Positions 23,746 through 25,348 are shown, counted from the stretch's first letter. The stretch is 29,701 nucleotides of DNA from an uncultured bacterium (GCA_937958665.1 CALGNM010000404.1:1-29701), one strand, 5' to 3'. A program made the numbers and translations. The notes: generated by a model from the sequence alone, not told the origin.

Positions 23746-25348
23746 TCTTGTCCATCAGGGCCAGGTTGCGCTTGACCATCTGGTTGCCAGGATCAGCCTC
23801 CAGGGTCCTCCGCCACCAATCGGCCGCCAGATCCTTCCGGCCCTGCTTGAGATAAAGATTGCCCAGCCGGGCCATCTCGGCTGGTTGGATCAGGCCCAGT
23901 TCGGCCAGCCGGTTCAGGATCTCGATGGACCGGTCGGCCATCCCGGTCCGGTAATAAAGTTCTGCCAGGTTGCGCAGGACCTCGGGATCATCGGGGCGGG
24001 CCTTGAGGGCCTGCCCGTAGTAACGTTCGGCCTCATCCTCCTGCCCCCTGGCCTGCAGCAGGGCCCCGAGGTTGTTGGGAACCGCATGGTTGGGCCGGCC
24101 CCGGTTCTCGATGGCCTGCCAGTGATGCAGGGCCCGGTCGGTTTGGCCGTTCCGAAAGGCGATCACCCCGGACAGGAATTGGGCCAGGTCGGGGGTTTGC
24201 CCGGTGGACTCCAGGCGGTTGAGCTGTTCCTGGGCCGTCTCGGCATCCCCGCCCCGGTACAGCAGGTAGGCCAGGTTGGTCCGGGGCACCGCCTTCTCGG
24301 GCGACAGTTCCAGAGCCCGGCGGTACTGCCGGGCGGCATCCTCGACCTCGCCCATCAGTTCCAGGCTCAGGCCCAGGTTGTTGTAGGCCGCCGCCTGCTT
24401 GGGCTCCACCGCGATGGCCTCCAGAAACTCGGTGGCCGCCTCGGCGTACTCCCCCTTGCGGAAATGGATCAGCCCCAAATAGAAGCGGGCCTCGTAATGG
24501 TCAGGCTTGATGGCCACTATCCGGCGGTATTCCCGCAGGGCCTCGTCCAGCATCTGGGTGCGGTAGAAGGCCAATCCCAGGTTGCGGTGGTCGTCGATGA
24601 TGTTCTGGTTCCAGGAGGCCGCCTGGCGGCTCTTCTCGCTGCCCCGCTTGACCAGCCCGGCCAGCAGCAGTCCGTAGACGATCTTGGAGGTCTGGAACTC
24701 GCCCAGGGGCGAGGCCTCGGTCACCTCGGCCAGGGAGCGGTAGCCGTCAACCAACCCCAGCACCTGCCTCTCCTGAGCGTTCAGGCTGAGCTCCTCCTGC
24801 TGCTTGAGGTCCAGCATCACCTTCTCCAGGACGGTCTGGGGGGTGGGCAGTTTCTTCTCCATGGCCCGCCACTCATCCACCCGGCGGGCCTCCTCCAGCA
24901 GCAGGTTCATGGCGTCCAGCGATACCAGGATGTTCTCGCCCTCCGGCCGGCTGTCCGGCTCGAAGAAGAACTCCCCGTCCGGCCAGCGCAACAGATGGAA
25001 TATGGTGTCCTCGATCTGTCCGGCGATGTCGGCCTCGATGTCGGCCTCGGCCACCAGCCCCTTCTCCAACAGGATGCCCCCCAGGCGTCGGGCCCCGCCC
25101 TCCCGCTGCTGGAAGTCCAAAGCCTCCTGCAGCTGCTGCGAGCTGATCAGCCCCCGGGAGAACAGCCGTTCGCCCAGCCGATCCGGGCGGTTCAGCAGGC
25201 TGGCATAGCAGATCTTGCCCTCGGCAAAGTAGATGCTGCCGAAGTTGCTGCCGTCGGTCACCTTCAGGCAGCCGGTCTTGCGCCCCACCGCCAGCAGCTG
25301 CAGGACGTCCGGCAGATTCACCTCCTTGAAGGAGCCCTTTATGGCCAT
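23729..25348 (-). CDS. PATAN/DUF4388 domain protein with MshEN-type insert and C-terminal TPR array
   Basis: N-terminal IKGSFKEVNLPDVLQLLAVGRKTGCL...GSIYFAEGKI; LLRWPDGEFFF; LLLEEARRVDEW; winged-helix-like segment; then multiple TPRs (HRNLGLAFY, ARFYLGLIH, AYNNLGLSL, VPNNLGALL). Confidence 0.9.
   Translation of the reverse strand: MAIKGSFKEVNLPDVLQLLAVGRKTGCLKVTDGSNFGSIYFAEGKICYASLLNRPDRLGERLFSRGLISSQQLQEALDFQQREGGARRLGGILLEKGLVAEADIEADIAGQIEDTIFHLLRWPDGEFFFEPDSRPEGENILVSLDAMNLLLEEARRVDEWRAMEKKLPTPQTVLEKVMLDLKQQEELSLNAQERQVLGLVDGYRSLAEVTEASPLGEFQTSKIVYGLLLAGLVKRGSEKSRQAASWNQNIIDDHRNLGLAFYRTQMLDEALREYRRIVAIKPDHYEARFYLGLIHFRKGEYAEAATEFLEAIAVEPKQAAAYNNLGLSLELMGEVEDAARQYRRALELSPEKAVPRTNLAYLLYRGGDAETAQEQLNRLESTGQTPDLAQFLSGVIAFRNGQTDRALHHWQAIENRGRPNHAVPNNLGALLQARGQEDEAERYYGQALKARPDDPEVLRNLAELYYRTGMADRSIEILNRLAELGLIQPAEMARLGNLYLKQGRKDLAADWWRRTLEADPGNQMVKRNLALMDKNAFAK
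25016..25180 (-). other. Tandem MshEN-type c-di-GMP-binding motif (residues 57-111)
   Basis: RLGERLFSRGLISSQQLQEALDFQ and RLGGILLEKGLVAEADIEADIAGQ fit the 24-residue RLGxxLLxxGLVxxxxLxxxLxxQ consensus. Confidence 0.7.

Follow-up and report, generated by a model that had tools for sequence, protein, structure and literature searches.

We analyzed a 29,701-nucleotide stretch of DNA from an uncultured bacterium (GCA_937958665.1, CALGNM010000404.1:1-29701; hereafter the window) and found that one of its genes encodes a protein in which a tandem pair of motifs matching the c-di-GMP (cyclic diguanylate) motif of MshE is embedded in a PATAN (DUF4388) domain. The gene is an open reading frame of 539 codons at 23729-25348 on the reverse strand, its product combines the PATAN domain with tetratricopeptide repeats (TPRs), and the motif pair forms residues 57-111. 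Taken as a whole, the observations are best explained by a PATAN-TPR protein that probably acts as a c-di-GMP-binding scaffold and that may couple to partners through its PATAN and TPR parts. We infer binding of c-di-GMP by the insert from sequence and modelled structure and, more weakly, that the protein is coupled to MglA and to type IV pili.

Two tandem c-di-GMP motifs in a PATAN-TPR protein

An earlier reading of the window from its sequence alone (the sequence-only reading) had proposed two 24-residue repeats separated by seven residues. Translation reproduces this exactly: the 55 residues encoded by 25016-25180 on the reverse strand are the peptide quoted in that reading, with motif I at residues 57-80 (25109-25180, reverse strand), the spacer at residues 81-87 (25088-25108, reverse strand) and motif II at residues 88-111 (25016-25087, reverse strand). 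The spacer is variable and poorly conserved, and it has 6 residues in Gemmatimonadota orthologs. The start of the gene is confirmed by the first three residues, M1-A2-I3, which are invariant in 41 homologues.

The published consensus consists of two tandem 24-mers of the form RLGxx(L/V/I)(L/V/I)xxG(L/V/I)(L/V/I)xxxxLxxxLxxQ joined by a short spacer. Both 24-mers of the query, starting at residues 57 and 88, satisfied the relaxed 24-residue pattern used in the census of Wang et al. 2016 (PMC5013675), and they were the only matches to it in a six-frame translation of the whole window. The strict consensus was missed at three positions only, F63 in the core and I104 and I108 at consensus Leu positions of the second repeat; the latter two are the Leu-to-Ile changes already noticed in the sequence-only reading. 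All three residues are hydrophobic, and a strict regular expression, which the query fails through these departures, was discarded as a criterion because we judged them conservative. The kinship with the motif of MshE and PilB that had been claimed was also recovered by the NCBIfam model NF053729 ('c-di-GMP motif, MshE-related'), a 53-position hidden Markov model (HMM) dedicated to this motif with a curated cut-off of 38 bits. It matched residues 57-105 with 46.3 bits (E 2.7e-12) and scored the protein at 51.6 bits in a genome-wide scan.

A likeness arising by chance or composition in a helical stretch rich in Leu, Gly and Gln could be suspected here, the more so as Foldseek gave poor E-values for this short domain (0.18-1.9). 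In 200,000 composition-preserving shuffles of the protein, however, two matches never occurred and a single match occurred in 0.16%. Together with the NF053729 E-value, the profile match to MshEN given below, and key residues that are invariant across phyla, this refutes the chance explanation.

The scan for MshEN that had been suggested came out differently with the two available models. NF053729 scored above its cut-off, but the Pfam model named 'MshEN' (PF05157, T2SSE_N) had no match in the PATAN-TPR protein even at E up to 10. In the PilB of the same genome (L009:1474-3024, contig C36), PF05157 covers residues 63-150, and the motif lies at residues 10-62. As this model spans the C-terminal subdomain only and lacks the motif, its silence is uninformative. 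For the same reason censuses based on Pfam are blind to receptors that consist of MshEN_N only, and NF053729 is the model to use. Judged by its sequence, the PATAN-TPR protein is such an MshEN_N-only protein and not a full MshEN domain, since it is without the MshEN_C (T2SSE_N1) subdomain.

The motif pair lies inside the PATAN domain, as had been stated: Pfam DUF4388/PATAN (PF14332) matched residues 4-161 with 124.2 bits (gathering cut-off 25; E 3.9e-36). The profile alignment splits at the insert, with profile positions 1-76 on residues 4-82 and positions 50-122 on residues ~87-161, so that both repeats are matched, one after the other, by positions ~50-76. Hence, the Pfam model has one helical unit where the query has two. 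This doubled unit, located at the canonical point of the PATAN domain, is what Makarova et al. (2006) and later Han et al. described as the 'alpha-helical insertion'.

Relation to solved c-di-GMP receptors

We compared the insert with proteins of known structure. A search of the Protein Data Bank with the single sequence recovered PilF (E 1e-9), Geobacter PilB (3e-7) and the Vibrio cholerae MshEN domain (VcMshEN; 5e-4), and a profile of the insert built from 41 homologues recovered the same proteins with E-values of 3.9e-22, 1.5e-12 and 2.6e-11 (5htl), respectively. The profile match in 5htl comprises residues 7-62, exactly the ligand-binding stretch.

An AlphaFold2 (AF2) model of residues 1-235 had a mean predicted local distance difference test (pLDDT) score of 87.5 and a predicted template modelling score of 0.80. 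It shows, in order, a small sheet with a helix, four helices (58-64 and 70-82 in motif I, 89-95 and 101-119 in motif II), the rest of the PATAN domain and a helical domain. The insert is thus predicted to form a four-helix bundle as in MshEN_N. Modelled alone, it superposed on two c-di-GMP-bound structures, MshEN (5htl_A; 1.5 Å, 55 columns) and PilF GSPII-B (8pdk_B; 1.3 Å, 54 columns), and VIA-align of the model gave a Z of 7.1 to residues 13-69 of Xanthomonas citri PilB (7lkm_B). With the whole 235-residue model, Foldseek returned only noise (MbtI, actin and MreB, root-mean-square deviations of 10-21 Å) except for PilF GSPII-A at rank 19, and it found no solved PATAN core. The C-terminal helices of fumarase and aspartase also superposed on the insert (~1.6 Å, 45 columns); we rejected them as generic helix hairpins, none of which was recovered when solved structures were searched with the profile.

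The insert shares with the MshEN_N of VcMshE (5HTL; PMC5013675) and with PilF GSPII-B/C (8PDK; PMC11731258) the tandem 24-residue motifs, the four-helix bundle and every ligand-contacting position (R, L, G, the Leu-type triads and Q). Unlike MshE and PilF, the query lacks the MshEN_C/T2SSE_N1 subdomain and a secretion ATPase, and its bundle sits in a loop of the PATAN domain and not at the protein N-terminus. Compared with VcMshEN, its spacer is longer (7 residues against 5), and two triad positions have Ile instead of Leu. In published work, isolated MshEN_N (residues 1-62) without the C-terminal subdomain binds c-di-GMP with a dissociation constant of 0.35 μM (PMC5013675), and Lys in place of Arg at motif position 1 is tolerated in PilF GSPII-B, a 6 nM binder (PMC11731258). 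In our alignments 7-residue spacers were also seen in Geobacter PilB and in PilF GSPII-C, a binder that in addition has Lys at position 11.

Conservation of the ligand-contact positions

The positions that contact the ligand in VcMshEN have clear equivalents in the query. R9, L10 and G11 correspond to R57, L58 and G59, and L25, L29 and Q32 to L73, L77 and Q80; in motif II, R38, L39 and G40 correspond to R88, L89 and G90, and L54, L58 and Q61 to I104, I108 and Q111. When we aligned 120 homologues with 37-99% identity, R57, G59, Q80, G90 and Q111 were invariant, L73 was kept in 118 sequences, and residue 88 was Arg or Lys. The mean frequency of the top residue at the 'x' positions of the insert was just 0.50. 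In an independent sample, 79 of 80 species-level genomes kept all six critical positions, and R57, G59 and Q80 showed no variation in any of the 80 loci. The sequence-only reading had made its proposal hinge on conservation of the RLG and Gln positions, and these are invariant or nearly so in homologues. The query, whose lineage comprises relatives of Candidatus Edwardsbacteria/TA06, is nearer to the consensus than a Gemmatimonadales ortholog from the same type of operon, in which we also confirmed the motif; the query retains the two turn glycines and has Leu at position 11.

Clusters at 50% identity that match the PATAN domain of the query at E up to 0.001 number 10,280, and among representatives of the nearest 150, the six critical residues were intact in 71 by an HMM-alignment count. 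A tight regular expression applied to the same 150 representatives found 40 intact; this is an undercount, and the HMM-alignment count was used instead. PATAN-embedded MshEN_N is therefore, on these sequence counts, a widespread arrangement that is intact in about half of the nearest clusters.

Several observations weigh against c-di-GMP binding or against the wider role that we propose. The top fold match of the insert is PilF GSPII-A, which does not bind c-di-GMP, so that the fold is necessary yet not sufficient. Both Leu positions of the second triad are occupied by Ile (I104 and I108), position 108 is Ile, Met or Val family-wide and almost never Leu, and such residues could lower the affinity. 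The turn glycines G66 and G97 are both present in the query, but about 40% of Gemmatimonadota orthologs have other residues there. In the literature that we searched, binding of c-di-GMP by a PATAN insert is neither stated nor assayed. Finally, the link of the PATAN-TPR protein to MglA consists of gene order only.

The same substitutions raise the question of whether another nucleotide is bound, for instance 3',3'-cGAMP, c-di-AMP, pGpG or a linear guanine nucleotide. Ile in place of Leu at two sites, and Ile, Met or Val at position 108 throughout the family, alter the second base-stacking triad, and the spacer is 7 rather than 5 residues long. The latter feature is shared with PilF GSPII-C, which does bind c-di-GMP, and the invariant Gly positions supply the backbone amides that read guanine (PMC5013675). 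Moreover, the MshEN-type motifs in the literature that we examined are reported as c-di-GMP receptors, and the genome is rich in domains of c-di-GMP turnover. We therefore consider a different nucleotide ligand improbable.

Alternatively, the insert could be a structural or protein-docking 'alpha-clip', for example for the PilB N-terminus, PilC or MglA, as proposed for cyanobacterial PATAN regulators, in which nucleotide binding was lost or never present. Its conserved residues would then be kept for a protein interface. Indeed, regulators composed of PATAN and a receiver (REC) domain bind PilB1 and PilC, and their insert has been discussed only as a look-alike of PilB N1 (bioRxiv 10.1101/2021.06.11.447907). 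Non-binding bundles resembling MshEN exist in PilF GSPII-A and in XpsE (PMC5013675, PMC11731258); the former is the nearest fold match, and the likeness to the fumarase helices at a similar ~1.6 Å indicates that the helix arrangement is generic. The key residues, however, separate the query from these non-binders. GSPII-A fails to bind c-di-GMP through its degenerate second motif (PMC11731258), which in our alignment is without the Arg at position 1 and the Gly at position 3, and it has H33 in place of the Gln of motif I (PMC11731258). XpsE carries G11V, R38G, G40L and Q61V. The query has all key residues, and conservation within the insert is highest at these positions, including the motif-terminal Gln, for which no structural role is evident.

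Paralogs with the same fold provide a natural control. Genomes of the phylum (G000, G004, G013, G017 and G018; L029-L041) encode 4-5 paralogs each of a 235-residue module made of PATAN domain, insert and small helical domain; in the source genome (G000) they lie on contigs C66, C381, C6 and C347. In the ortholog group of the query, and likewise in the second PATAN-TPR protein of the operon, the pattern [RK]-[LIMF]-G...G...L...L..Q is present twice. Paralog groups C and D retain both fold and insert, yet they have Gln, Phe or His at position 57, Gln, Arg or Ser at 59, Pro at 88, Glu or Asp at 90 and Lys at 111. We accordingly distinguish two intact and two degenerate groups, the latter, represented for example on contig C66 of the source genome, being predicted non-binders. 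Because groups C and D lose the contact residues and retain the fold, the alpha-clip fold does not require these residues, and their retention in the ortholog group points to ligand binding. Same-fold paralogs that freely lose the key residues also argue against docking as the reason for their conservation, and we consider the docking explanation unlikely, although less so than a different nucleotide.

In addition to these paralogs, each genome encodes one insert-less PATAN protein of about 230 amino acids. Giant proteins of 1455-1492 amino acids (P0124, P0125 and P0126) carry 5-6 PATAN domains in tandem.

Architecture of the protein and proposed mechanism

The N-terminal half of the PATAN domain (residues 1-56; 25181-25348, reverse strand; DUF4388 positions 1-~50) was modelled by AF2 with a pLDDT of about 90 as strand 3-6, helix 12-21 and strands 26-31, 36-42 and 45-51. 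The C-terminal half (residues 112-165; 24854-25015, reverse strand; DUF4388 positions ~77-122) continues helix 4 of the insert (101-119) and adds strand 126-131 and helix 146-164; the core residues I112, L119, W122 and G125 are invariant. It is followed by a small helical domain (residues 166-235; 24644-24853, reverse strand; AF2 helices 181-229), a constant companion of this type of PATAN domain and part of the 235-residue module of the paralogs. The TPR region of about 8 repeats covers about residues 245-535 (23744-24616, reverse strand) and matched Pfam TPR_2 (7e-34), TPR_1, TPR_16 and others. As an NCBIfam TPR-repeat match occupies residues 254-531, there is no room for a C-terminal REC domain, and there was no Response_reg match among the best 25 of the 38 Pfam families matched.

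We propose that the protein would be a cytoplasmic scaffold composed of the PATAN domain, the inserted four-helix module of the MshEN_N type, the small helical domain and the TPRs. If it works like the homologous V. cholerae MshEN, the bundle would bind a single molecule of c-di-GMP stretched out across it. Stacking on the two guanines would come from R57 and R88, and the Hoogsteen edges of these bases would be read by the backbone amides of G59 and G90. The other faces of the bases would be covered by the hydrophobic triads L73/L77/L89 and L58/I104/I108, and Q80 and Q111 would hold the ribose-phosphate. Because helix 4 runs unbroken into the conserved PATAN core, ligand binding might be relayed to the surfaces of the PATAN domain and the TPRs and affect the choice of partner. 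Likely partners would be products of the same operon (MglA, the MglB/Roadblock proteins, the DnaA-like ATPase and the Che system), the type IV pilus motor, or both.

That the two PATAN-MshEN_N-TPR proteins of the operon are c-di-GMP-gated effectors or scaffolds of MglA is a tentative proposal, which we regard as possible but doubtful. There are precedents for its parts. In Bdellovibrio, MglA, the TPR protein Bd2492 and CdgA form a hub that includes a c-di-GMP receptor (PMC3983030), Myxococcus xanthus MglA recruits PilB through the TPR protein SgmX, and cyanobacterial PATAN regulators bind both PilB1 and PilC (bioRxiv 10.1101/2021.06.11.447907). Likened by architecture and context, the query shares with SgmX and Bd2492 a TPR scaffold that is genetically or physically tied to MglA. 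Unlike in those hubs, one polypeptide encoded in the mglA operon joins the predicted receptor to the TPR scaffold. If the proposal is true, chemosensory input and the level of c-di-GMP would both act directly on the polarity switch by which type IV pili are placed. To our knowledge, an MglA module would then for the first time have a direct c-di-GMP input, and a PATAN domain a demonstrated biochemical function.

Relation to earlier work

Makarova, Koonin, Haselkorn and Galperin published the helical PATAN insert, together with its resemblance to the N-terminus of GspE/PilB, in 2006. Han et al. (2021/2022) described the insert as two repeats of two antiparallel helices and noted that it resembles the start of PilB/GspE N1. 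The function of the motif was shown in 2016 by Wang et al., whose table of domain architectures has no motif inserted in PATAN (PMC5013675). MglA and MglB genes near PATAN genes were already known, and PATAN proteins steer type IV pilus polarity in cyanobacteria. In the searchable literature the biochemical role of PATAN is described either as unknown or as partner binding only. The Synechocystis alpha-clip proteins PixG, PixE and LsiR have the same domain with an identical insertion point; unlike these PATAN-REC proteins of the PatA type, the query has TPRs in place of the receiver domain.

Binding of c-di-GMP by the embedded motif, if real, would turn many PATAN proteins into c-di-GMP receptors and would give MglA polarity modules a direct second-messenger input. 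It would also help to explain genomes with 11 GGDEF domains yet a single PilZ domain. The gene is a clean test case, with a near-consensus motif, a second intact copy in the operon, and degenerate paralogs as natural negatives.

c-di-GMP signaling in the source genome

The source is a metagenome-assembled genome of 2.05 Mb that is 93.8% complete. It encodes 11 GGDEF, 8 HD-GYP-type (HD_5) and no EAL domains, along with 1 PilZ domain. The remark that the window contains no diguanylate cyclase thus holds, with GGDEF and HD-GYP-type domains present elsewhere in the genome. NF053729 had eight matches, five of them within PATAN domains; two further matches lie in frames of 529 and 607 amino acids that carry the two strongest T2SSE ATPase matches. 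From these counts, MshEN_N-type modules would be the main class of c-di-GMP receptors in this genome.

Matches to FliG_C reached the cut-off only (23.2 bits), and the sole match to the CheA dimerisation domain in the genome is on contig C107. For these reasons a flagellar output of the module is unlikely, and motility output through type IV pili is more likely.

The mglA operon and neighbouring genes

All genes described here are on the reverse strand. The upstream neighbour of the PATAN-TPR gene encodes a DnaA-like AAA+ ATPase (25379-26746; Pfam Bac_DnaA 1.1e-37, residues 9-157), and the scans that we ran gave no match outside its ATPase/lid region. It is followed by genes for the MglA GTPase (26761-27354; phmmer against M. 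xanthus MglA, 6h17, E 7.9e-81, residues 1-191) and for MglB, a Roadblock/LC7 protein (27397-27957; phmmer against M. xanthus MglB, 6izw_B, E 2.4e-19; Pfam Robl_LC7) whose translation probably begins within this frame. Two more Roadblock genes lie at 27960-29376 and encode a 113-residue protein and a 353-residue TPR-Roadblock protein (Pfam Robl_LC7 7e-09 and 3.4e-09). On the other side, cheR (22924-23745; Pfam CheR 4.7e-59) overlaps the stop of the PATAN-TPR gene by 17 nucleotides and is the first gene of a downstream Che block that continues with cheD, cheB, cheW and two genes for methyl-accepting chemotaxis proteins.

The gene order CheA-CheC-TPR-PATAN/TPR-Roadblock x3-MglA-DnaA-like-PATAN/TPR was conserved in one TA06 and one Gemmatimonadales genome, and the DnaA-like ATPase had the same position in both. 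The description of the module as MglA-linked is thus borne out by the MglA and MglB matches and by synteny across phyla. Contig breaks probably interrupt the operon in the source genome, since CheA is on contig C107 and the second PATAN-TPR gene is at the end of contig C347, where the N-terminal 297 amino acids are encoded. By synteny, contig C347 probably adjoins C404. The window is the whole of contig C404 and, with the stretch 29123-29668 (reverse strand), ends just upstream of the TPR-Roadblock gene.

Some genes of the relatives differ in size or content. The syntenic ATPase of Gemmatimonadales (L027:8079-10001) has 640 amino acids and two DnaA/AAA modules, and the version in the window has 455 amino acids and one module. 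Between cheC and the second PATAN-TPR gene, the Gemmatimonadales genome has an 893-amino-acid gene product consisting entirely of TPRs (L027:2023-4704; TPR_2 1e-85), and another gene of 893 codons occupies the equivalent position at L028:1617-4298.

The small helical domain of the PATAN-TPR protein had its best structural matches in GATOR1/SEAC, namely 9v0j_A (residues 167-235; Z 9.2, 2.3 Å over 68 residues with VIA-align) and 8adl_S (Z 7.8). GATOR1 is a GTPase-activating protein complex for Rag GTPases, which carry Roadblock domains. The PATAN-TPR gene lies next to those for MglA and three Roadblock proteins, and the likeness may perhaps reflect just a common winged-helix-like fold.

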